Part shown: piece after piece, positions 6,323 to 53,995 of the stretch
Numbering within the stretch: position 1 is the first letter of the stretch
How the letters are laid out: every line of letters begins with the position of its first letter
Source of the DNA: an uncultured Candidatus Saccharibacteria bacterium
GTDB lineage: Bacteria; Patescibacteriota; Minisyncoccia; UBA6257; 2-01-FULL-56-20
Reading direction: 5' to 3'
Assembly (NCBI GenBank): GCA_964365185.1
Contig: CAYIOP010000002.1
Span: forward strand, 2,684-66,683
Length of the DNA: 64,000 bases
Position numbers and translations under genes: made by a program
The notes under the pieces: generated by a model
What the model was told of the DNA's origin: nothing
The model's database searches: none
Seen by the model: only the letters and a program-made list of their open reading frames with translations

Positions 6323-8740
6323 TTGTTTTATAAATCCCAAGTGGGCATAATCAAGATTATGCAATTAGTTAAAAAAATTCTTTTTTATCTAGCTGTCGCC
6401 TTTATTATCCTCGGCCTTATTGGAGTTTTTTTATTTTTCTATTTTTCAAAAGATCTACCATCTTTAAACGAAATCACTAACCGTCAAATTCCAGAATCAA
6501 CTAAAATTTACGATCGCACCGGCAAAATTCTTCTTTATGAAATCTCCAATGGCCAGAAAAGAACCGCCGTTCCCATTGACCAAATCCCGCAATCACTAAA
6601 AGACGCAACCGTCGCTATTGAAGATGCCAACTTCTACACTCAACCCGGATTTAGTATTAAAGGCACAATCCGCGCTTTTCTAGTTAATTTAACGAGAGGG
6701 AAAATCGTCCAAGGCGGCTCCACTATCACTCAACAACTCGCCCGCAACGCTTTTCTCTCCGCCGACAAAACCATTGCCCGGAAAATTAAAGAATTTATTT
6801 TAGCCGTGGAACTTAACCGCCACTACTCCAAAGACCAGATTTTAGAATTATATCTAAACGAAATTCCGTACGGACCAACTTTCTATGGCGTCGAATCCGC
6901 CAGCTTGGCCTATTTTAGCAAATCCACGAAAGATCTCACCCTATCTGAAAGCGCTATCTTAACCGCTATTCCTAAAGCCCCCAGCTATTATCAACCGTGG
7001 GGCAATCACCAAAAAGAATTATTGGAAAGGAAAAATTTGGTTTTAAAAAGGATGTTTGAATTAAAAAAAATCACTTCCCAAGAATATGAAAAGGCGCTTA
7101 AAGAAAAAATTGTCTTCTCTCCGCAGGATACTCTGGGTATTAAAGCCCCTCACTTTATTATGTTTATTCAAGATTACCTGGTTCAAAAATACGGCGAAGA
7201 TATGGTTCGAGCTGGCGGCCTTAAGGTCATCACCACTCTCGATTGGACACTTCAAGAATTAGCCGAAAAAGTAATTACCGAAGGCGCCAAGAAAAATGAA
7301 GAGCTTTATCAAGGTAAAAATGCGGCCCTAGTGACCGAAGACCCTAAAACAGGCCAAATTTTAGCTATGGTTGGCTCTAGGGATTATTTTGATGCCGAAA
7401 ATGATGGAAGCTTCAACGTTGCCACTCAAGGCCTGCGTCAACCCGGTAGCGCACTAAAACCCTTTGTCTATCTCGCAGCTTTCAAAAAGGGCTACACTCC
7501 CGATACAGTTCTTTTTGATGTTCCCACTGAATTTGACACCACGAGTCGGCCGGATAAAAGTTATCGGCCTGAAAATTTCGACGGCGTTTTCCGCGGACCG
7601 GTCAATCTCCGTCGAGCCTTATCTCAATCCATCAACATCCCGGCGGTTAAAACTCTTTATCTAGTTGGCCTTTCAAGCGCGCTTGAAACTCTTAAAAATT
7701 TTGGCATCACCACTCTTTCTGATCCTCGACGCTACGGCCTCTCTTTGGTTTTGGGCGGCGGCGAAGTGAAATTAATCGAAATGGTCCAGGCCTACTCCGC
7801 CCTAGCGGCTGACGGAAATCTTCATCCCACTACCGCCATTTTAGAAATTAAAAACAAACAAAACTCGATCTTAGAATCTTACAAAGAAACCGGCAGAGAA
7901 ATATTTGACGCTCAATCGGTTCGAGTTATAAATGACGTCCTCTCTGATGTTGACGCACGATCAGGACTATATAGCGGCAGTTTAAATCTCACGCTTGTTC
8001 CCGGTCACGACATTGCTCTTAAAACCGGTACCTCAAACGACTACCGCGATGCTTGGGTTTTCGGCTACACGCCAACCTTAATTACTGGCATTTGGGCAGG
8101 CAACAACAACAACACTCCCATGCAACGCCACGGTTCAAGTATTTTAGCCGCTCTCCCTATCTGGCACGCCTTTATGAGTGAAGCTCTAAAAGACAAAGAG
8201 GTTGAAGCTTTCTCTCGACCAGAACAAAGCACGCCGACCAAACCTATTCTCGCCGGAGATTATTTAGCCAGCAACCAAATCCACACCATCCTTTATTATG
8301 TCGATCGCAATGATCCCGCTGGTCCTTACCCTCTAAATCCCGAAGCTGATTCTCAATTTAGCAACTGGGAATCTCCAGTTCTTGATTGGGCTAAAAAAAA
8401 TCTGCCTAATTTCAATGCTTTAAATCAGCCCGATGGTCTACCAACTCAAAATTTAACTCCGACCGGCAACATCAAAATCAATATCGAAAAACCCAAACCA
8501 GGGGAGTTTGTAGATAACTTTATTGAAATCAAGGCCTCGCTCAAAAGCTCTTCCGACATCACCGAAATTAATCTTTATTTAAATCATCTTTTGGTTCAAA
8601 AATTCACCCAAAATTTCGGCACCAACTATGGATTCAGTTGGCAATTTTCTCCATCCAATCTCGAACCTCAAAGTATTTTAGAGATCGAAGCTAAAACCCA
8701 AAATCAACAAAATAAAACCAGCGTAATTATCTATCACTAA
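6323..8740 (+). CDS. class A penicillin-binding protein (bifunctional transglycosylase/transpeptidase, PBP1A family)
   Basis: GT51 motif QGGSTITQQLARN; transpeptidase SALKPF (SxxK) and KTGTSND (KTG). N-terminal TM anchor. TTG start at 6323; an alternative ATG lies at 6359. Confidence 0.85.
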   Translation: MFYKSQVGIIKIMQLVKKILFYLAVAFIILGLIGVFLFFYFSKDLPSLNEITNRQIPESTKIYDRTGKILLYEISNGQKRTAVPIDQIPQSLKDATVAIEDANFYTQPGFSIKGTIRAFLVNLTRGKIVQGGSTITQQLARNAFLSADKTIARKIKEFILAVELNRHYSKDQILELYLNEIPYGPTFYGVESASLAYFSKSTKDLTLSESAILTAIPKAPSYYQPWGNHQKELLERKNLVLKRMFELKKITSQEYEKALKEKIVFSPQDTLGIKAPHFIMFIQDYLVQKYGEDMVRAGGLKVITTLDWTLQELAEKVITEGAKKNEELYQGKNAALVTEDPKTGQILAMVGSRDYFDAENDGSFNVATQGLRQPGSALKPFVYLAAFKKGYTPDTVLFDVPTEFDTTSRPDKSYRPENFDGVFRGPVNLRRALSQSINIPAVKTLYLVGLSSALETLKNFGITTLSDPRRYGLSLVLGGGEVKLIEMVQAYSALAADGNLHPTTAILEIKNKQNSILESYKETGREIFDAQSVRVINDVLSDVDARSGLYSGSLNLTLVPGHDIALKTGTSNDYRDAWVFGYTPTLITGIWAGNNNNTPMQRHGSSILAALPIWHAFMSEALKDKEVEAFSRPEQSTPTKPILAGDYLASNQIHTILYYVDRNDPAGPYPLNPEADSQFSNWESPVLDWAKKNLPNFNALNQPDGLPTQNLTPTGNIKINIEKPKPGEFVDNFIEIKASLKSSSDITEINLYLNHLLVQKFTQNFGTNYGFSWQFSPSNLEPQSILEIEAKTQNQQNKTSVIIYH

Positions 8741-42676: not shown

Positions 42677-43699
42677 ATGCCAAAAGCGATTATAACCGGC
42701 ATCACTGGTCAAGACGGCTCTTACTTAGCCGAGCTTTTACTCTCTAAGGGCTACGAGGTTCATGGTATTATTCGCCGGGCTTCTTCATTTAACACCGGGC
42801 GGATCGATCACATCTATCAAGACCCCCACGAAAAAAATCGCCGGCTCTTTCTTCACTATGGCGATCTTTCTGATGCCAACACAATTCGTCGCCTAATTTA
42901 TAAAGTGGAGCCAGATGAAATCTATAACCTCGGTGCTCAATCTCATGTTCGGGTCAGCTTCGATGTTGCTGAATACACAGTCAATATTGTTGGCGTTGGC
43001 ACACTCCGATTGCTTGAAGCTATTAAAGATTATGAAGAACACGCCGGCAAAAAGGTAAAATTTTATCAGGCCTCATCTTCCGAAATGTTTGGCTCGACCC
43101 CTCCTCCTCAAAATGAAACTACTCCGTTTTATCCGCGAAGCCCGTATGCTTGCGCCAAGGTCTTCGCCTATCACACTACCCGTAATTATCGCGAAGCTCA
43201 TAGCATTTTTGCAGTTAACGGTATTCTCTTTAATCACGAATCAGAACGCCGAGGAGAGACATTTGTAACTAGAAAAATTACCCGTGGTATCGCGAGAATT
43301 TTGGCCGGACTCGACAAAAAACTTTATCTTGGAAATCTTGATGCGCGTCGCGACTGGGGCTACGCTCCTGAATATGTCGAAGCTATGTGGCTGATGCTTC
43401 AACAGCCGACCCCAGAAGATTACGTGATCGGTACTGGCGAAAGTCATAGCGTCAAAGAATTTGCTGAGACCTCTTTTAATTTAGCGGGTCTAAATTGGCA
43501 AGACTACATCGAAATTGATCCTAAATACTACCGTCCGACCGAAGTTGAAAATTTAGTAGCTGATACCACTAAAGCCAAAACCAAACTTGGTTGGGAAGTT
43601 AAAACACATTTTGATAACTTGGTTAAAATAATGTTAAGGCATGATCTTTTGTATCACGGCCTCAAAGAGGCTGCCGATAAAATTAATCTTGAGAGCTAG
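42677..43699 (+). CDS. gmd: GDP-mannose 4,6-dehydratase
   Basis: [37 protein letters not shown]...HYGDLSD; YACAKVFAY. Confidence 0.9.
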
Positions 43700-45841: not shown

Positions 45842-46807
45842 ATGCATAAAAATTCTAAACTGACCCTTTCTCTATACCGGAAATTGCTGCTTGTTAGACT
45901 GGCGGAGGAAAAAATCAGAGAGGAGTATCCTTATGATGCCATTAAAACTCCAGTTCACTTGGCCAACGGCAGTGAGGCCATTTCAGTTGGTGTTTCGAGC
46001 GTCTTGCCGCCCGACTCCAAAGTTTTTGGAACTTACCGTAATCACGGTCTTTATCTGTCTTTGACTGACGACACCGACAGTTTTTTTGCGGAGCTATACG
46101 GTAAAGCCGTGGGTTGTGCCAAGGGCAAGGCGGGTTCAATGCATCTTTCTTATCCCGAAAAGGATTTTATAGCAACTTCAGCAATAGTTGGAACCACTAT
46201 CCCGCTTGCCGTGGGAGCCGCCTTAGCAAACAACTATCGTAACTCGAATGATATTGCGGTCGCTTTTTTTGGTGACGGTGCCCTCGAGGAGGGCGTTTTC
46301 TGGGAAAGTCTAAACTTCGCCTGTCTTAAAAAACTCAAAACACTTTTTGTTTGCGAAGATAACGGCTTGGCGATTCACGCACAGGCTCGCGAGCGTCGCG
46401 GGTTTAAATCAATACCTGATGCTATTCGCGGTTTTGATTGTCACGTAGCGAGCGGCGATGGAACAGATCTAAGTTCCGTCAGCGAGCTAACTCAAAGCGC
46501 GTTGAAGTTAATAGCCGAGGATCCTAAGCCGGCATTTCTTCATCTTGCATATTTCCGATTTCTGGAGCATGTGGGTGTAGAAGAGGATTTCTCGGCCGGT
46601 TATCGCGCGAGGCCCTCGGAAGAAGAAATAAAACGATTAGATCCGATCATCCGTTACGAAAGATATCTTCTTGATTCAGGCATAGGCCAGACGGAGCTTG
46701 AGAATATTAAGTCAGAACTTATAAAAAAGATTGATAAGAGTGTCGAGGCCGCTAAGGCGGCGCCCCTTCCATCAAAGGACGAACTATTGACTGACGTTTT
46801 TGTATAA
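45842..46807 (+). CDS. thiamine-diphosphate-dependent dehydrogenase E1 component, alpha subunit
   Basis: E1 alpha TPP-binding region (GTYRNHG..., GDGALEEG). Confidence 0.7.
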   Translation: MHKNSKLTLSLYRKLLLVRLAEEKIREEYPYDAIKTPVHLANGSEAISVGVSSVLPPDSKVFGTYRNHGLYLSLTDDTDSFFAELYGKAVGCAKGKAGSMHLSYPEKDFIATSAIVGTTIPLAVGAALANNYRNSNDIAVAFFGDGALEEGVFWESLNFACLKKLKTLFVCEDNGLAIHAQARERRGFKSIPDAIRGFDCHVASGDGTDLSSVSELTQSALKLIAEDPKPAFLHLAYFRFLEHVGVEEDFSAGYRARPSEEEIKRLDPIIRYERYLLDSGIGQTELENIKSELIKKIDKSVEAAKAAPLPSKDELLTDVFV

Positions 46808-47843
46808 AATGATTTTAACTTTTAGAAACGCCTTAAATTTTGCTATGAAGAAAGAAATGGAATCAGATCGAGATGTTTTTGTGTTTGGATTGGATGTGCC
46901 CGATCATAAACGAATTTTTGGAAGTACAGCGGGACTGGTAGAACAATTCGGTCCGGAGAGGTGTTTCGGAACGCCTTTATCAGAAGAAGCTATGACAGGT
47001 GTGGCTTTGGGGGCTGCCATATCTGGCCTTAGGCCCATACATGTTCATATCAGAGCGGATTTTATGTTTTTAGCAGCTAATCAGATTGTTAATATGGTGT
47101 CAAATATTCGTTATATGAGTGGCGGGAAATTAAAGGTACCCTTAGTCATAAGAGCTGTTATTGGCAGGGGATGGGGTCAGTCGGCGCAGCATAGCAAATC
47201 GCCACACAGCACTTTCGCTCATTTTCCGGGCCTCAAGGTTATTTTACCAACGAATCCGCAGGACGCTTACAGCCTTTTGAGGGCATCGATACGTGACGAC
47301 AATCCAGTTATTTTTTTGGAACATCGCTGGCTTTATGATATAGAGGGCGAGGTTGATGACAGCTTGAATATTTCTTTAGGGAAGGCGGCGGTAAGACGGA
47401 AGGGAGACAAGGTAACAATTATCGCCATCTCTTGGATGAATGTTGAGGCGATGGAGGCGGCCCAAATTTTAGCGAAGCAGGGTGTAGAAGTTGAAGTCAT
47501 TGATATACGATCAATCTCGCCATTAGACGAAGAAACAATTATCGAGTCCGTCAAAAAAACCGGCCGCTGTGTTGTAGTCGATCACGACTGGCGATTCTTG
47601 GGCGCAAGCGCGGAGATAGCCGCCATTATTCAAGAGAAATGCTTTGGACTTTTGAAAAATCCGGTCGCGCGAATCGGTTTTCCTGAGTCGCCTTGCCCCA
47701 CCACGCGACCCCTCGAGGACGCTTTTTACCCGTCGGCAATAAATATTATTAGGATCGTCGAGAAGATGCTTGAACTTCCCGAATCGGATTTGAATAATGA
47801 GAGATTTTACAATTACGAAAATAAATTTAAAGGACCTTTCTGA
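46800..47843 (+). CDS. TPP-dependent dehydrogenase E1 component, beta subunit (transketolase-like C-terminal)
   Basis: Typical E1 beta/transketolase pyrimidine-binding fold (FGTPLSEEAMTGVALGAA...); overlaps the alpha gene by 8 nt. Confidence 0.7.
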   Translation: MYKMILTFRNALNFAMKKEMESDRDVFVFGLDVPDHKRIFGSTAGLVEQFGPERCFGTPLSEEAMTGVALGAAISGLRPIHVHIRADFMFLAANQIVNMVSNIRYMSGGKLKVPLVIRAVIGRGWGQSAQHSKSPHSTFAHFPGLKVILPTNPQDAYSLLRASIRDDNPVIFLEHRWLYDIEGEVDDSLNISLGKAAVRRKGDKVTIIAISWMNVEAMEAAQILAKQGVEVEVIDIRSISPLDEETIIESVKKTGRCVVVDHDWRFLGASAEIAAIIQEKCFGLLKNPVARIGFPESPCPTTRPLEDAFYPSAINIIRIVEKMLELPESDLNNERFYNYENKFKGPF

Positions 47844-48934: not shown

Positions 48935-50098
48935 ATGTTTTGGAAATTACAAGAAAACGTTTTTGAGAAAAGCGACATAAACTTGTTGGTTGATTTTATT
49001 AAGTCAACTGGTCGCTTCACGCAGTTTAAAAAGGTGAGAGAATTTGAGGAGGCCTGGTCTAATTGGCAGGGGACAAAGTACAGCGTTTTTGTTAATTCCG
49101 GCAGTTCAGCTAATTTAGTCATTGTGAGCGTTTTAAAGCAGATCTATGGCTGGAAAGATGGCGATGAAATAATCGTCCCGGCAGTAACTTGGCCAACTAA
49201 TATTAACCCAGCCATTCAACTTGGATTAAAACCGGTCTTTGTTGATATTAATCTAAGCGACCTCTCATTTGATTACGAGGACTTAGTTTCAAAGATAACT
49301 TCGAAAACCCGAGCTATTTTTGTAACCCATCTCATAGGTTTTCCAGCCGATATTAGAAGGATCGAAAAAATTATTGTTGGCAGGGATATTAAAATATTCG
49401 AGGATTGTTGCGAATCGCATGGGGCAAGAATAGGAGAAACTAAAGTTGGAAATTTAGGTTTGGTGAGTTCCTTTAGTTTTTATTGGGGTCATCACATCAC
49501 TACAGTTGAAGGAGGAGTTATTTGCACGAACGACAAAGATATTTATAAAAATGCCATTCTTAAGAGATCGCATGGCCTCGCCCGTGAGTTGCCGATAGAG
49601 TATCATGCGGATTACGCCGCGGCGCACAAGGATATAGATTTTAATTTCTTATTTCTGACAGACGGTTTTAATTTCCGAAACACAGAATTCAACGCGGTTT
49701 TAGGACTTTCTCAAATTAAAAAACTAGATTCTTACATAAAAATTAGAAACGATAATTATCAAAAATTCTTAGAAATCCTCAAGCCCTACCAAAACCATCT
49801 CCACCTCCCTTATAAAGATGGTTTATCATCTTTCTCGTTGCCGTTTTTATTTAAAGACGCTGATAAGCGTAAAAAATTTCAATCAATTCTCCGCGAGAGC
49901 GAAATAGAATCTCGTCCGGTAATCAGCGGCAACCTCCTGCGCCAGCCGTTTCTTTCTTCTTATGGTGACCCTAAAGATTTTGAGAACGCTGAATTCATTC
50001 ACAATAATGGTTTCTATATCGGCAACAACCAGTTCGTGAATGATGAGCGACTCGGCCGACTCGCTGAGCTTGTAGAAGATTTTTTTAAGACCAGGTAG
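48935..50098 (+). CDS. DegT/DnrJ/EryC1/StrS-family PLP enzyme, RfbH/DdhC-like (sugar dehydrase/aminotransferase)
   Basis: FVNSGSSANLVIV...; fold-type I AAT-like; 387 aa. Confidence 0.7.
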   Translation: MFWKLQENVFEKSDINLLVDFIKSTGRFTQFKKVREFEEAWSNWQGTKYSVFVNSGSSANLVIVSVLKQIYGWKDGDEIIVPAVTWPTNINPAIQLGLKPVFVDINLSDLSFDYEDLVSKITSKTRAIFVTHLIGFPADIRRIEKIIVGRDIKIFEDCCESHGARIGETKVGNLGLVSSFSFYWGHHITTVEGGVICTNDKDIYKNAILKRSHGLARELPIEYHADYAAAHKDIDFNFLFLTDGFNFRNTEFNAVLGLSQIKKLDSYIKIRNDNYQKFLEILKPYQNHLHLPYKDGLSSFSLPFLFKDADKRKKFQSILRESEIESRPVISGNLLRQPFLSSYGDPKDFENAEFIHNNGFYIGNNQFVNDERLGRLAELVEDFFKTR

Positions 50099-50175
50099 TT
50101 TCTTCCGATAAATACACAGAACTTATCCCCACCTCACCGATTGACGTGGGAGTTTAATTATATATAATTAAAAAC

Positions 50176-50979
50176 ATGACAAACAACGAAGCCGATAAAA
50201 ATATCCAAGGGCTTAAGCCAAGCGAAGAGGAGTTTGGCGCGGACCGGACGCAAAGGTGCATCGACCTCATGCGACCCGAGGTTAAGGAGCTTTTAAATCT
50301 CCCGCTTAAAGACAAAATAGAAAAGACGGAGGAGATAATCAAAGAGACCATTAAAAAATACAAAAACCCCGGAATAGGTTTCAGCGGCGGCGGTGACAGC
50401 GAAGCCATGCTTCATATTGCCATGAAAATAAAACACGACTGGCCAATACTTCTCGTTGACACCAGATACGAGTTTCCCGAGACCTTAGATTTCGTGGAGC
50501 AACTAAGAAAGGATTGGAACTTCGAGAGTTTTACCGTGGTTAGGGCCGGCACTGATAGAGCCGATGAATTTAAGGAAAAATATGGAGCTGGAACAACCGA
50601 GTTTACTCTTGAGTTTAATAAATGGCACAAGATAGACCCGTTAATCCGCGGCATAAAACAGTTAGGACTCGATGCGTTTCTTGGTGGCATCAGGGGAGTC
50701 GAGCACGAAGAAAGAGCGAAGGAGCAATTCTTTTCTCCCAGAACCGATCCGCCGCATGTGAGGGTCCATCCGATACTTTTCTGGACTAGGGACGATGTGC
50801 AGACATACCTGAAAGACAACGGGCTCCCTCATAATCCTGTCTATGATAAGGGCTATACCTCTCTGGGTTCAACCCTCGATACTACTCCCAATCAAAATCC
50901 CAACATGCACGAAAGAGCTGGCCGAGGGGTTGAGAGAGAAAGGATAATGAAACAACTCCGAAGCTTGGGTTATAACTAA
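50176..50979 (+). CDS. PAPS reductase/FAD synthetase-family (ATP-pyrophosphatase-fold) protein
   Basis: GIGFSGGGDSEAMLHIA PP-loop (SGGxDS) and LLVDTRYEFPETLDFV. Confidence 0.7.
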   Translation: MTNNEADKNIQGLKPSEEEFGADRTQRCIDLMRPEVKELLNLPLKDKIEKTEEIIKETIKKYKNPGIGFSGGGDSEAMLHIAMKIKHDWPILLVDTRYEFPETLDFVEQLRKDWNFESFTVVRAGTDRADEFKEKYGAGTTEFTLEFNKWHKIDPLIRGIKQLGLDAFLGGIRGVEHEERAKEQFFSPRTDPPHVRVHPILFWTRDDVQTYLKDNGLPHNPVYDKGYTSLGSTLDTTPNQNPNMHERAGRGVERERIMKQLRSLGYN

Positions 50980-50999
50980 AACGAAAGTTTTACTAGAAC

Positions 51000-51200
51000 C
51001 TACTTAATATATCCGAGGGCCCTTAAATGTTCGCGTATCTTTTCCCTATCCGGAAGTTGAGAAGGTTCGGTTTTATTGACTAATAACTCGCGGAGAACAT
51101 AGATCACAAACGCCGATGCGGAAACAAACCCGGTGTTTTTGATCAATTTTTTAATTTTTTTATTTAATGGTTCTGGGATAGAAACCGTGGTGTATTTCAT
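51000..51200 (-). CDS. small hypothetical protein, possibly ribbon-helix-helix
   Basis: 66 aa; overlaps the next gene by ATGA; weak RHH-like N-terminus. Confidence 0.3.
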   Translation of the reverse strand: MKYTTVSIPEPLNKKIKKLIKNTGFVSASAFVIYVLRELLVNKTEPSQLPDREKIREHLRALGYIK

Positions 51201-51493
51201 CTTTGCTTTTTCTCTAAGGCGACCTTGAATCGGCCTTTCTTAAAAACTTTATAGTATTCGTAAAGCGCGAATGAAAGCACGACCAGAGCCAGCGTATATT
51301 TCACCTGAAGGGGTCTTTGGACAATCAGCGTGGCATAGCCAAAGGCGACAATATTGGCGACGAACGAAATTCCAAGCAAAAGAAAACTTAAGCCCTCAAT
51401 CGTGCCGGTCTTCCTCGTTTTTATTATTTGGGGGATATAGCAAGCCGTAAAGAGAGTTGTTGCCGTCCATCCCAGCCATTGCGCGAATTCCAT
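51197..51493 (-). CDS. PQ-loop / SemiSWEET-like 3-TM membrane protein
   Basis: 98 aa, three TM helices, CYIPQIIKTRKTG PQ motif in the TM1 loop. Confidence 0.5.
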   Translation of the reverse strand: MEFAQWLGWTATTLFTACYIPQIIKTRKTGTIEGLSFLLLGISFVANIVAFGYATLIVQRPLQVKYTLALVVLSFALYEYYKVFKKGRFKVALEKKQR

Positions 51494-51597
51494 AGATTAA
51501 TTAGAATAATTATATATAATTATATTATCTGTTAGGCAAGTTTCTGTCAAATGGGAATATTTTGACTTTTAGGATTTGAGTTTTAAGATTTATCAAC

Positions 51598-52971
51598 ATG
51601 ACTTCCGAAAAAAAACCCAATATTGTTCTAATTACTTTTGACTGTACCCGGGCCGATCGGATGGGAATTGCGGGTTATAAAAAAAACATCACTCCTTTTT
51701 TGGACTCTTTAGCTAAGAAAGGTGCTTATTTTAAGCGTGCCTACTCAACTGGCCCTGGTTCCCCGCATTCGTTTGTTGCTATCCTTACTTCAACCCTTCC
51801 TTTTGACTACGGTGGCTTTGGATATATAGACAGACCTAGAATGTTGGTTAGTGAGACACTAAAATCAGCCGGCTATACTACAATCGGAGTGCACTCCGCA
51901 GCTTATATGTCTGCTTATTTTGGTTATGACAGAGGGTGGGATCAGCTTGTTTACTTAAGTAATTTTAAAGACGGTGATGTTATTCCCGGCATTCGGCGCG
52001 ATACTTGGCAGGCGCGACTTCTTAAAAAACTTAACGCGGCCCATAAATTTGTAAAACGTAAATCTCCTTGGATAGATAAATGGGTATTTTTTGTGATTGA
52101 AAGAGCCGCTTTTATCTGCCGCAAAATTTTTGTTGATATCTTTAGATTTCGCCCCGCCTTTATCATTGCTGAAGAAATTAATCAGAAAGTTAAAGAAATA
52201 CTTCCGCGTGCCCCGCGTGCCCCGCGCGAACCGCTCTTTCTCTGGGTGCATTATATGGACCCGCACGCTCCCTACACACTTTTTCGGAAGATCAAAGGAA
52301 CTTTTATCCAAAAAATAAGATATTTTTTGTGCGACATCCTACCTTATTTCGTTGGACAAGGAAGTTGGGCCACGCGCCTTTTTAAATCTTTTTTTATCAA
52401 CACCTATGATATTTCTATTCAGTATACCGACCAAAACATCAAAAATCTTTTTGAGTATCTTAATTCGATCGAAGTTATTAATGACGACAGCCTAGTTATT
52501 CTTTGTTCCGACCATGGCGAAGAATTTTTTGAGCACGGCAATGTCGGCCATTTAGCCACTCTCTATAACGTCAATCTTAATGTCCCACTAATTTTTTATG
52601 GTTCCAAACATTTATCTTTCAATGGGATAATTGACCGACCAGTCAGTTTAATGGATATCTCGCCGACGATTTTAGACGTTGCCGGAGTTGAAAAACCAAA
52701 AGTTTTTAAAGGACAAAACATTTTTAATACCGAGCCAAGACCGATTATCGGTCAAGTGCCCGATACCGAAGATGATCTCTCTAATCAGACGTTTCGAGGA
52801 GTCAGTTTAATTTATGATGGCTATAAATTCATTAAAATGATTGATCAAAAAATGCTCTTTTCGCTTGACGATGCCAATGAGCAAAATAACCTCTATGATA
52901 AAAAACCAGAACTTGCAAGAAGAATGGAGGAATTAATAAAGCCCTATGAATTTATACATCCTGCCAATTAG
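51598..52971 (+). CDS. sulfatase-family protein (alkaline-phosphatase superfamily)
   Basis: NIVLITFDCTRADRMGIAGY (sulfatase N-terminal metal/FGly region), HYMDPHAPY, CSDHGEEFFEHGNVGH. Confidence 0.75.
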   Translation: MTSEKKPNIVLITFDCTRADRMGIAGYKKNITPFLDSLAKKGAYFKRAYSTGPGSPHSFVAILTSTLPFDYGGFGYIDRPRMLVSETLKSAGYTTIGVHSAAYMSAYFGYDRGWDQLVYLSNFKDGDVIPGIRRDTWQARLLKKLNAAHKFVKRKSPWIDKWVFFVIERAAFICRKIFVDIFRFRPAFIIAEEINQKVKEILPRAPRAPREPLFLWVHYMDPHAPYTLFRKIKGTFIQKIRYFLCDILPYFVGQGSWATRLFKSFFINTYDISIQYTDQNIKNLFEYLNSIEVINDDSLVILCSDHGEEFFEHGNVGHLATLYNVNLNVPLIFYGSKHLSFNGIIDRPVSLMDISPTILDVAGVEKPKVFKGQNIFNTEPRPIIGQVPDTEDDLSNQTFRGVSLIYDGYKFIKMIDQKMLFSLDDANEQNNLYDKKPELARRMEELIKPYEFIHPAN

Positions 52972-53995
52972 CACTGACCAGTTAAAGGATAATTTTTTTG
53001 ACCCCGCTCCGATTCCAAGCGGTGGCCAGCCCAATGTTGATTTCTGGAATGAATTTAGCAGCGGCCTAAAAAAAGCCGGCGTTGAAGCTCATACCACTGA
53101 TTACTGGAGTAAAGATAAAAGCCAACCCGACGATATCTTGATGGTCATAAATCACCCCGGCGAAACTTTCCTTTGGAGCTCATTCTATTTTCTGAAACAC
53201 TTCAAAAAGCGCGGCGGCTTTATTCTCGAACGCCGCCGATTTTTGTACAAAAACTACCGCTATTTCAAAAAACGTATCCTCTATCAAGGAGAACTGCCGG
53301 TAGCCATGCCTTATGTCTATAATAATTTACCAGCACTTAATAAAAAAGGTATTTACACTAAAATCTTGCTAATCTGCAAAGGTTTTGGCAATTACGATTA
53401 CTTTAACCACTATCTTGATATTAATAAGGATATCACCAGTCAGTACTTTGATAATCCTAAAAATAAATTTTTAGTAATGATTAATTCCAATATTCGGCCC
53501 CACTCTCTTAAAAATGAGTATTATAGTGAGCGTTTAAAGCTCATTAAATATTTCAGCCGCATTCCTGGATTTGATCTTTACGGCTATTTTTGGGATAAGA
53601 GACCACGCCACCCATTCTTTTTTCACTACGGTAAATATGTCCGCCATAGCTGGCGGGGCACGACACCCGATAAAGTTAAAACCCTAAGCGAGTATAAATT
53701 TTCCCTTTGTTTAGAAAATTGTATTTACCCCGGTTTTGTAAGCGAGAAAATTTTTGATTCTCTGGCCGCTGGTTGCATTCCGATTTATCTCGGCCCCAAT
53801 GATACCGAAGAAATTGTTCCTAAGTCCTGCTTTGTTAATTTCCGGCGATTCAATAATTATGATAAGCTTTATCATTATATTTCTGCTCTTACTGAAAAGG
53901 ATTTAAATCGATATCGCGATTCAATAAAAAATTTCCTTAAAAGTCGAACGCCCGACAAAGGAATAGATGTTTTTGTCCATAAACTTATTCATTAA
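52946..53995 (+). CDS. GT10-family alpha-1,3-fucosyltransferase
   Basis: FSLCLENCIYPGFVSEKIFDSLAAGCIPIYLG matches the FxLxFENSxxxxYxTEK...IPIYxG signature of bacterial FutA-type enzymes. Confidence 0.7.
   Translation: MNLYILPISTDQLKDNFFDPAPIPSGGQPNVDFWNEFSSGLKKAGVEAHTTDYWSKDKSQPDDILMVINHPGETFLWSSFYFLKHFKKRGGFILERRRFLYKNYRYFKKRILYQGELPVAMPYVYNNLPALNKKGIYTKILLICKGFGNYDYFNHYLDINKDITSQYFDNPKNKFLVMINSNIRPHSLKNEYYSERLKLIKYFSRIPGFDLYGYFWDKRPRHPFFFHYGKYVRHSWRGTTPDKVKTLSEYKFSLCLENCIYPGFVSEKIFDSLAAGCIPIYLGPNDTEEIVPKSCFVNFRRFNNYDKLYHYISALTEKDLNRYRDSIKNFLKSRTPDKGIDVFVHKLIH

Follow-up and report, generated by a model that had tools for sequence, protein, structure and literature searches.

Gene content and conserved neighbourhood of the cassette

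We analysed a 64,000-nt stretch of DNA (hereafter the window) from an uncultured Candidatus Saccharibacteria contig (CAYIOP010000002.1 of assembly GCA_964365185.1, positions 2,684-66,683 of the forward strand), which contains a small group of genes that we describe here as a candidate glycan-sulfation cassette. A preliminary description of this DNA had named three genes in the group, encoding a PP-loop protein of the PAPS (3'-phosphoadenosine 5'-phosphosulfate) reductase family, a SemiSWEET-like transporter and a sulfatase-family enzyme. All three open reading frames (ORFs) are present at the positions given, and they match PF01507, PF04193 and PF00884, respectively. However, the ORF list of the window contains four ORFs between 50176 and 52971; the other three genes had been given correctly, but a fourth on the minus strand, encoding a small protein that resembles ribbon-helix-helix (RHH) DNA-binding proteins, had been overlooked. 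The four genes are as follows:

50176-50979, plus strand: CysD/CysH-family PP-loop enzyme, 267 amino acids (aa) (PF01507 PAPS_reduct, E 3e-40)
51000-51200, minus strand: RHH-like protein, 66 aa (above threshold for no family)
51197-51493, minus strand: PQ-loop (SemiSWEET-like) membrane protein, 98 aa, three transmembrane (TM) segments (PF04193, E 7e-11, 42 bits against a cutoff of 22)
51598-52971, plus strand: soluble sulfatase-fold (alkaline-phosphatase-superfamily) enzyme, 457 aa (PF00884, E 7e-38, 131 bits)

A scan of one genome per species yielded 49 loci with a relative of the PP-loop enzyme (48 after removal of one distant CysD locus), most of them from DPANN archaea (Micrarchaeota, Woese-, Pace-, Nano- and Aenigmarchaeota) and a few from bacteria of the Candidate Phyla Radiation (CPR). 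A gene of the alkaline-phosphatase (AP) superfamily, either of the sulfatase type or of the nucleotide pyrophosphatase/phosphodiesterase (NPP) type (PF01663), was found within 3 kb of the PP-loop gene in 41 of the 48 loci, and a homologue of the 66-aa RHH-like protein within the same distance in 34 of the 48; several of the loci without partners are truncated contigs. The commonest gene order is RHH, sulfatase-type and PP-loop, with an NPP-type gene in some cases preceding them, and many cassettes have two or three AP paralogues. The related cassettes sit in glycan loci, among genes for GT4 and GT2 glycosyltransferases, epimerases, flippases, DegT aminotransferases, methyltransferases and B12-dependent radical S-adenosylmethionine (SAM) proteins. 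Genes of this last kind (PF02310 plus PF04055), often in two copies, recur beside the cassette in glycan loci of Pace-, Nano- and Woesearchaeota (L026, L028, L036, L037, L039, L048 and other DPANN loci).

The PP-loop and AP partners also occur within single proteins. A profile search of 1.84 billion representatives returned 8386 PP-loop relatives, 84 of them at E < 1e-30, and we examined the best 150. Among these, 27 were single chains in which an N-terminal AP domain, of the sulfatase type in 15 and of the NPP type in 12, precedes a PP-loop domain at the C-terminus, and another five were fused to a CysN-type GTPase, giving 32 fusions in 150. In the fusion P0385, the C-terminal domain is 35 % identical to the PP-loop protein of the window, tail included, while the N-terminal domain is 24 % identical to its sulfatase-like protein and has Thr as the nucleophile (YTTAAHAS). 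Because linkage was found in 41 of 48 loci and single-chain fusions are common, the adjacency of PP-loop and AP genes is not a matter of chance. The fusions argue for consecutive or channelled steps. Among the proteins P0385, P0388, P0395 and P0381, several fusions have a DUF4214 domain (PF13946) between the sulfatase-like and PP-loop parts, and in P0381 DUF4214 alone precedes the PP-loop domain. Our literature searches found no description of the cassette or of sulfatase-PP-loop fusions.

The PP-loop enzyme combines CysD hallmarks with a CysH-like half

The 267-aa protein carries an intact PP-loop (G-F-S70-G-G-G-D74-S75), in which S70-G-G-x-D74-S75 is invariant in an alignment of 20 family members. 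Residues K152, R173, R180, R247 and R250 are conserved among the same 20 members and form a pocket in the window enzyme; we take them to be the phosphosulfate-contacting residues of the adenosine 5'-phosphosulfate (APS) reductase structure. None of the Cys residues is invariant in this alignment. The chain ends in L-R-x-L-G-Y-[N/T] in all 20 members, as L261-R-S-L-G-Y266-N in the window, and the LRxLGY tail is kept in 97 of the 150 best representatives.

With E. coli cysD and cysH taken as references and aligned with the family, the PP-loop aligned with S-I-G-K-D-S of CysD, and the tail (HERAGRG.ERE..M..LR.LGYN) aligned with the tail of CysD (SERQGR...), where CysH has RECGLHEG. The position of the CysH Cys (ECGLH) is occupied by R256 in the window enzyme. 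Both hallmarks of CysD, a working PP-loop and a GY tail, are thus joined to a CysH-like C-terminal half in one protein. Against the curated models, the protein scored 117 bits with CysH model NF002537 (cutoff 154), 101 bits with TIGR00434 (cutoff 165) and 86 bits with CysD model NF003587 (cutoff 195), to which residues 53-190 alone align. The predicted structure (pLDDT, the predicted local distance difference test score, of 85) has a good core, with the tail at low confidence, and its best Foldseek matches were 6vpu, 1sur and 2goy. By sequence and predicted structure together, its relatives are, in order, CysH, APS reductase, CysD and then FAD synthase. The preliminary description had considered that a grouping with tRNA-modifying or FAD-synthetase enzymes would speak against sulfate chemistry; the protein instead groups with CysH and CysD.

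Membership in the PAPS-reductase family, as originally proposed, therefore stands as far as the PF01507 domain and the fold are concerned, but the role of a reductase does not, and is ruled out by the sequence, which lacks the ECGLH Cys. Because the ATP-binding PP-loop is intact, a catalytic Cys is absent and the tail is of the CysD type, the protein would be an adenylyltransferase rather than a reductase, and the most economical reading is that of a sulfate-activating enzyme that carries out ATP-dependent adenylyl transfer onto sulfate. The enzyme would accordingly make, or at least handle, APS. We also asked whether the tail could be an HbYX proteasome-docking motif and rejected the idea, as the Tyr is not always penultimate, a Gly precedes the Tyr, and bacteria have the tail too.

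Genuine CysD and CysN-like proteins accompany the PP-loop enzyme in two of the related loci. In L034, from a CPR bacterium, the gene order is CysD (288 bits against the cutoff of 195), PP-loop protein, CysN-like GTPase (6828-7997; 231 bits with TIGR02034), two sulfatase-like genes and a flippase, and in L011, from a member of the Micrarchaeota, an RHH-CysD-CysN-like operon (CysD at 274 bits) abuts the PP-loop gene. The short CysDs of both loci end in ...LRELGYM.

The same tail is in fact distributed beyond the PP-loop enzymes. In the RHH-like family, the alignment shows the tail ...(E/K)(K/R)L(K/R)xLGY to be the peptide with which the PP-loop enzyme also ends. The short CysDs carry this tail too, as do a handful of further small ORFs and some of the sulfatase-like proteins, haloarchaeal members such as P0229 and P0232 among them. 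Three of the small ORFs (L009 2388-2741, 117 aa; L035 5661-5840, 59 aa; and L016 1118-1603, 161 aa) end in ...L(S/R)ALGYM or ...LRKIGYKK, and BLAST clustering showed them to be unrelated to the RHH family. A further ORF, L040 6767-7156, encodes a 129-aa degenerate CysD remnant whose N-terminal 50 residues match CysD and whose PP-loop has decayed to ANKDS, yet it still ends in EKEEIMRRLRDLGYR (LRDLGYR); this tail may be under selection on its own.

This distribution, together with the invariance of the Gly-Tyr at the tail end, would fit a sulfuryl relay, in which the PP-loop enzyme would use APS (derived from CysDN or from a host) in a CysH-like manner to sulfate its own tail Tyr, and the sulfatase-fold enzyme would then use this protein aryl sulfate as its donor; the tails of the other bearers, among them the RHH protein and some of the sulfatase-like enzymes, would be loaded as well. 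The coexistence of true CysD and CysN-like GTPase with the PP-loop enzyme in L011 and L034, and the retention of a CysH-like C-terminal half with its sulfate pocket, are consistent with such a relay, and aryl sulfates are classic substrates of the sulfatase fold. However, the GY tail is also that of ordinary CysD, for which no sulfation is known, the residue opposite the CysH Cys in the alignment is 256 rather than Tyr266, and the invariant, canonical PP-loop points to ATP use and pyrophosphate (PPi) release. In addition, a variable number of residues (0 to 2) follow the Tyr, and the position of the tail is modelled with low confidence. We therefore regard sulfation of the tail Tyr as a fairly unlikely explanation, both for the PP-loop enzyme and for the other tail-bearing proteins, and prefer to see the PP-loop enzyme as the adenylyltransferase proposed above.

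The sulfatase-like enzymes have Ser or Thr at the formylglycine position

The preliminary description left open whether the sulfatase-family enzyme would remove sulfate from a sugar or add it, and had suggested the N-terminal FDCTRADRM as a context for formylglycine (FGly). This segment proved to be the region of the metal-binding Asp15, and its Cys16 is variable among homologues. Alignment with solved sulfatases instead placed Ser55 at the FGly position, within S55-P-H-S-F59, where those enzymes have S-T-P-A-R or C-G-P-S-R. In 39 cassette-linked and 18 database homologues, this position is always Ser or Thr, with Thr in most, and the family pattern [ST]-x-x-S-[FVL] replaces C/S-x-P-x-R. Invariant residues among the sulfatase-like homologues include the metal ligands D15, D305 and H306 as well as H218, H223 and H318. 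Neither a TM segment nor a signal peptide was found in the sulfatase-like protein, which starts straight with the catalytic domain and has a maximal 19-aa hydropathy of 1.47.

Thr cannot be converted to formylglycine. Because the site reads S-P-H-S-F in the window and is mostly Thr in the relatives, formation of FGly is precluded and no turnover by hydrolysis is to be expected; a hydrolytic sulfatase, and with it the desulfation that had been considered, was thus rejected, given the absence of the FGly motif and a Ser/Thr nucleophile throughout the family. In 1998, Recksiek and colleagues reportedly found that arylsulfatases A and B with Ser in place of FGly become trapped as the covalent sulfo-enzyme. 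On this basis, a natural Ser/Thr enzyme would be expected to release its sulfate to an acceptor alone, and would therefore be a transferase. We propose that the sulfatase-like enzyme is a glycan sulfotransferase, in which Ser55 would pass the sulfuryl group to a sugar.

The same residues bear on a reading of the locus as one for sulfur scavenging or assimilation, in which a hydrolytic sulfatase would be paired with a PAPS reductase, or as a set of unrelated neighbours. Automatic annotations do call these proteins 'arylsulfatase A-like enzyme' and 'phosphoadenosine phosphosulfate reductase'. This reading is already contradicted by the motifs, as the FGly motif is lacking (with mostly Thr in its place) and so is the catalytic Cys; moreover, sulfite reductase is not present, and the genes are always found within glycan loci, with the linkage in 41 of 48 loci and the domain fusions described above. 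We consider it scarcely credible, and retain a transferase acting on a glycan as the more plausible function.

The preliminary description had also raised the possibility of a phosphoglycerol or phosphoethanolamine transferase. The lack of FGly on which this was premised was borne out, but the sulfatase-like protein matched S1 sulfatases far better (E 1e-22 to 1e-34) than EptA and LtaS (E 1e-7 to 3e-3), and its scores with the EptA, CptA and LtaS models were 16-40 bits against cutoffs of 400-970. Because of the far better S1 sulfatase matches and the absence of a membrane domain, this reading is the weaker one.

Sulfatase-fold sulfotransferases have a precedent in haloarchaeal glycosylation

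Experimental precedent for sulfation by this fold comes from the aglB cluster of Halobacterium salinarum, in which VNG1056C (Agl30, membrane-bound) and VNG1057C (Agl31, soluble) are sulfatase-fold, alkaline-phosphatase-superfamily proteins encoded in a glycan biosynthesis cluster (Zaretsky et al., mBio 2025; PMC11980604). Deletion showed both to be sulfotransferases of the N-linked tetrasaccharide, and expression of either one in Haloferax volcanii led to position-specific sulfation of the host pentasaccharide (PMC11980604). The text of that study does not address the sulfate donor or the mechanism, and the words 'donor', 'PAPS', 'phosphosulfate', 'formylglycine' and 'nucleophile' are absent from it (PMC11980604). 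For Agl7 of Haloferax volcanii, which is needed for sulfation of the dolichol-phosphate-linked hexose, the literature that we found does not state the protein family.

Haloarchaeal homologues are 31-36 % identical to the sulfatase-like protein of the window, and at least one is encoded beside AglB, glycosyltransferases and a flippase. In a Halorubrum lacusprofundi-type contig (L051 1811-13023), a sulfatase-like protein with a Thr nucleophile is encoded among glycosyltransferases, adjoining AglB (STT3) and a flippase; a PP-loop or RHH partner was not found in this stretch. A search with the haloarchaeal homologue returned solely proteins named 'sulfatase'.

These findings bear on two further explanations. 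In the first, the cassette would carry out phosphoester decoration: a FAD-synthetase-like enzyme would provide an ADP-linked donor (such as ADP-glycerol or an ADP-amino-alcohol), from which an LtaS/EptA-like enzyme would transfer a phospho-group to the glycan. The Ser/Thr nucleophile and missing FGly motif would suit such chemistry, as would the existence of NPP-type paralogues and fusions, the weak matches to EptA, CptA and MCR models and the structural relationship of FAD synthase to the PP-loop enzyme. However, sulfatases are better matches by at least 15 orders of magnitude, the sulfatase-like protein has no membrane domain, and sulfation is what this fold has been shown in print to do in glycan clusters (PMC11980604). 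Phosphoester transfer would also leave the CysD/CysN-like association and the GTPase fusions unexplained, and would not account for the conservation of the residues that we equate with the sulfate-contacting ones of APS reductase. We therefore judge it unlikely.

In the second explanation, the AP-fold enzyme would be a mere helper that hydrolyses PPi, AMP or APS and in this way pulls or edits the activation of sulfate, with sulfation carried out by another enzyme. NPP-type AP enzymes are pyrophosphatases or phosphodiesterases, and ATP sulfurylase needs a thermodynamic pull. A helper role is nevertheless very unlikely in view of the two or three AP paralogues that many cassettes contain, of the position-specific sulfation that Agl30 or Agl31 alone conferred on a heterologous host, and of the lack of any other sulfotransferase candidate in the locus. 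The sulfatase-like enzyme thus remains, in our view, the best candidate for the sulfotransferase itself.

A palindromic element and the RHH-like protein may regulate the cassette

A perfect 16-nt palindrome is present twice in the cassette, at the promoter-like sites of the PP-loop gene and of the PQ-RHH genes:

50141-50168, plus strand: promoter-like TTGACG-16 nt-TATAAT of the PP-loop gene (best match in 49900-53100, 11 of 12 positions)
50155-50170: putative operator copy 1, palindrome TAATTATATATAATTA, over the -10 hexamer and ending 5 nt before the PP-loop ATG
51507-51522: putative operator copy 2, identical palindrome TAATTATATATAATTA, in the divergent intergenic region between PQ-RHH and the sulfatase-like gene

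As the -10 hexamer of the PP-loop promoter ends 7 nt before the ATG, the mRNA would be leaderless or nearly so. On the minus strand, a promoter-like site for the PQ-RHH genes (51550-51522) has the second copy a short way downstream of its -10 hexamer. A terminator-like hairpin (CTCACCGATTGACGTGGG plus a T-rich run) at 50133-50150 immediately follows the aminotransferase gene upstream and overlaps with the PP-loop promoter at its -35 hexamer.

These two copies are the only matches to TAATTATATATAATTA in the 64 kb, even with up to two mismatches allowed, where 0.06 would be expected. Across the related loci, 49 in number, there were 34 near-matches, of which 28 are followed directly by a PP-loop, RHH or sulfatase-like gene, and the element preceded the PP-loop gene in 17 of 45 cases, compared with 2 of 409 other genes. 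In DPANN archaea, a TTTAAATA box precedes the element, and the start codon follows it. In Micrarchaeota, a tandem palindrome, TGTTATAACATGTTATAACA, replaces TAATTATATATAATTA some 20-30 nt ahead of the PP-loop gene (L002, L004, L005, L007, L011, L015 and L035), and the N-terminal arm of the RHH protein there reads KR(K/R)YTTITIP, as against V(K/E)YGTISLP. We considered whether the palindrome might be a mere AT-rich promoter, and judged this insufficient, since within these AT-rich loci it precedes just 2 of 409 other genes, and since it changes with the RHH clade.

The 66-aa protein consists of an N-terminal KYTTVSIP, a helix and SASAFVIYVLRELL, followed by a variable linker and the C-terminal tail LRALGYIK. 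Its similarity to known RHH domains is low: PF01402 was matched by 8 of 18 members (best E 0.005), and NikR at E ~0.1. A low-confidence, alignment-free model has residues 1-9 extended and helices at 10-23 and 28-41, which is compatible with a beta-alpha-alpha arrangement. Because the element co-varies with the RHH clade, has a 10-bp periodicity and overlaps the promoters, the RHH protein is likely a repressor and autoregulator of the cassette that would bind these operators. Its tail probably docks on the same partner or pocket as the tail of the enzyme, which would tie regulation to the state of the enzyme; a regulator that carries the C-terminal peptide of its target enzyme is an unusual design.

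Bacterial PP-loop enzymes and those of Micrarchaeota are 66-79 % identical, and for the window protein the identity to Micrarchaeota relatives reaches 76-79 %. Such high identity between bacterial and archaeal proteins, together with a common operator, suggests cross-domain gene transfer, and the module appears to move between bacteria and archaea.

The PQ-loop protein and the surrounding glycan locus

The 98-aa protein has a YIPQ motif and three hydrophobic segments, and scored 26 bits with the SemiSWEET_2 model NF037968 (cutoff 80). Its gene overlaps the RHH gene by 4 nt, and the two are probably translationally coupled. Among the related loci, a PQ-loop gene adjoins the PP-loop gene in 6 of 49 (all DPANN, with clear orthologues), or in 7 of 50 when the window is included. 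It is absent from the closest relative, L001, where an unrelated gene pair takes its place; these two small ORFs (L001 7729-8212; 69 and 88 aa) resemble by eye an antitoxin and a RelE/ParE-type toxin. The trio that had been proposed as a unit is thus conserved as far as the pairing of the PP-loop gene with an AP-superfamily gene is concerned (41 of 48 loci), but the PQ-loop gene is an inconsistent member (6 of 49 loci plus the window), and the suggested coupling to sugar uptake was abandoned for this reason. By its distribution, we class the PQ-loop protein as an optional membrane accessory of the cassette.

According to family searches, the 40.5-63 kb region around the cassette is a single co-directional O-antigen-like locus. 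It encodes a Wzy_C protein, a GDP-mannose 4,6-dehydratase, several short-chain dehydrogenase/reductase (SDR) epimerases, methyltransferases, FdtA, an E1 alpha/beta thiamine-diphosphate pair, an RfbH-like aminotransferase, and GT10 and GT2 transferases. Two of these features are referred to below:

42677-43699: GDP-mannose 4,6-dehydratase
52946-53995, plus strand: GT10 (fucosyltransferase-like) glycosyltransferase (PF00852, E 2e-16)

The start of the GT10 gene shares 26 nt with the end of the sulfatase-like gene. A GT10 homologue also follows the sulfatase-like gene in L001, and another occurs in L013. The GT10 transferase may build the acceptor glycan, and its presence with the GDP-mannose dehydratase hints at a glycan that contains a 6-deoxyhexose. 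The E1 alpha/beta thiamine-diphosphate pair and the RfbH-like (3-dehydrase-type) DegT aminotransferase are encoded at 45842-47843 and 48935-50098; their presence with the dehydratase in one locus suggests that a branched or 3,6-dideoxy sugar is made.

The search for a sulfotransferase or ATP sulfurylase that the preliminary description had called for gave a negative result: the glycan locus, searched by family, contained no member of the sulfotransferase, APS kinase or ATP sulfurylase families, and a scan of the 64 kb found no CysD, CysN or CysC homologue besides the 267-aa protein. The named nearest relatives are metagenome-assembled genomes of Liptonbacteria/Parcubacteria (CPR), and a look-up with the PQ protein showed that an identical PQ-RHH-sulfatase segment is present on a groundwater contig from Hainich; exact-sequence look-ups with the PP-loop protein returned no contig.

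A model for glycan sulfation by the cassette

Sulfated surface glycans are widespread, and to our knowledge the only well-understood route to glycan sulfation uses PAPS and dedicated sulfotransferase folds. For the cassette, we propose that the minimal CysD-like PP-loop adenylyltransferase would first make APS from ATP and sulfate. Ser55 of the sulfatase-like enzyme would then take the sulfuryl group from the activated donor, probably as a non-hydrolysable covalent sulfo-Ser intermediate, and pass it to a sugar hydroxyl of a lipid- or nucleotide-linked glycan, a step for which the fold has experimental precedent. Direct use of APS would pull the unfavourable activation forward and would make APS kinase and PAPS unnecessary. 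Finally, the RHH protein would bind TAATTATATATAATTA at the PP-loop and PQ-RHH promoters and repress the cassette, as the arrangement of the DNA suggests.

We consider it likely, with considerable reservation, that the window contains a four-gene, self-regulated glycan-sulfation cassette in an O-antigen-like locus of a groundwater CPR bacterium, which is possibly PAPS-independent. This interpretation draws on sequence, gene context and the published precedent for the fold. In the form of sulfation, the sugar-directed sulfate chemistry that the preliminary description had envisaged is in this sense upheld by the grouping of the PP-loop protein with CysH and CysD, its CysD tail, the CysD/CysN-like neighbours, the fusions in 32 of 150 representatives and the Agl30/Agl31 precedent.

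Several observations weigh against this interpretation. The PP-loop protein misses every curated NCBIfam cutoff (117 bits against 154 for CysH, 86 against 195 for CysD), it lacks the two insertions of CysD, and its tail was modelled with low confidence. A stand-alone ATP sulfurylase is thermodynamically poor, and the presence of true CysD and a CysN-like GTPase alongside the PP-loop enzyme in L011 and L034 means that the latter may act after APS. A Ser/Thr nucleophile is a hallmark of phosphoryl-transferring AP-superfamily enzymes, and in some cassettes NPP-type (PF01663) paralogues replace or accompany the sulfatase type. The homology of Agl30/Agl31 to the window protein is indirect, through a common resemblance to PDB entry 6HHM, and the support for the RHH fold is weak (E about 0.1).

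We put forward more tentatively, as a proposal that we ourselves hold to be doubtful, a complete PAPS-independent route, in which the CysD-like enzyme would hand the sulfuryl group directly to the Ser/Thr transferase, with channelled APS or a sulfo-tyrosine of the LRxLGY tail as its carrier, and the repressor would read the state of the pathway through its copy of the tail. If this route were true, it would identify the donor system of the Agl30/Agl31 class and would add a novel way of coupling a regulator to an enzyme, one that gene transfer has spread across bacteria and archaea.

The cassette ties the sulfatase fold to a CysD/CysH-like enzyme by neighbourhood, by CysD/CysN-like co-occurrence and by dozens of fusions, and so offers a concrete, testable candidate for the sulfate source of sulfatase-fold sulfotransferases, in the form of small, soluble proteins that lend themselves to expression. 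It also suggests that host-attached CPR bacteria and DPANN archaea invest in sulfated envelopes. As a whole, with its putative activator, transferase, tail-mimicking repressor and cross-domain operator, the cassette was not found described in the literature available to us.

Comparison with known systems

The PP-loop enzyme shares its fold with CysD (Foldseek match 1zun, root-mean-square deviation 1.7 Å over 209 columns), as well as the S-x-G-x-D-S loop, the ERxGR motif, the M..(K/R)..GY[F/N] tail and the absence of a catalytic Cys, and some of its relatives are fused to or encoded beside CysN-type GTPases. It differs from CysD in an extra N-terminal helical segment of ~60 aa and in a C-terminal half that is nearer to CysH; furthermore, the window is without CysN, and relatives of the enzyme coexist with true CysD in two loci. 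CysH and APS reductase are its best matches by hidden Markov model and by structure (E 9e-29; 6vpu, 2goy), and the motifs DT(G/R)Y.FPET, K..P, GY.S.G and ERxGR are common to both. However, the PP-loop of CysH has lost the Asp and Ser, whereas that of the window enzyme is non-degenerate, and the window enzyme lacks the ECGLH Cys and has a tail that is 11 residues longer and ends in GY.

The sulfatase-like enzyme resembles S1 sulfatases (choline sulfatase and arylsulfatases) in its PF00884 domain, metal-binding Asp and Asp-His and SGSH_C-type C-terminal region, but does not have their C/S-x-P-x-R motif. With LtaS, EptA and MCR it shares the AP-superfamily fold and the Ser/Thr nucleophile, and these transferases decorate envelope glycans via a covalent enzyme intermediate. 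Its similarity to them is marginal, however, and it is without their N-terminal membrane domain; they use lipid donors at the outer membrane face, whereas the window enzyme would be cytoplasmic. The closer parallel is to Agl30 and Agl31, as AP-superfamily sulfatase-like proteins encoded in a glycan cluster, which is also the situation in the window and in the DPANN loci. Agl31 in particular is a soluble, cytosolic protein with a resemblance to PDB 6HHM, an entry that the window protein matches too, although the haloarchaeal clusters examined had no PP-loop or RHH partner.

The PQ-loop protein has the size (~100 aa), the three TM segments and the PQ motif of a SemiSWEET and passes the Pfam PQ-loop threshold, but it is well under the SemiSWEET_2 cutoff and is tied to the cassette rather than to sugar catabolism. 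Finally, the RHH-like protein would be similar to CopG, NikR or MetJ in its predicted N-terminal strand followed by two helices (with a NikR-like ISIP..L...........S.....IR pattern) and in the putative palindromic or 10-bp-periodic operators over its own promoter. It differs from them in having no ligand-binding domain, the place of which is taken by a linker and a copy of the tail of the enzyme that it would regulate.

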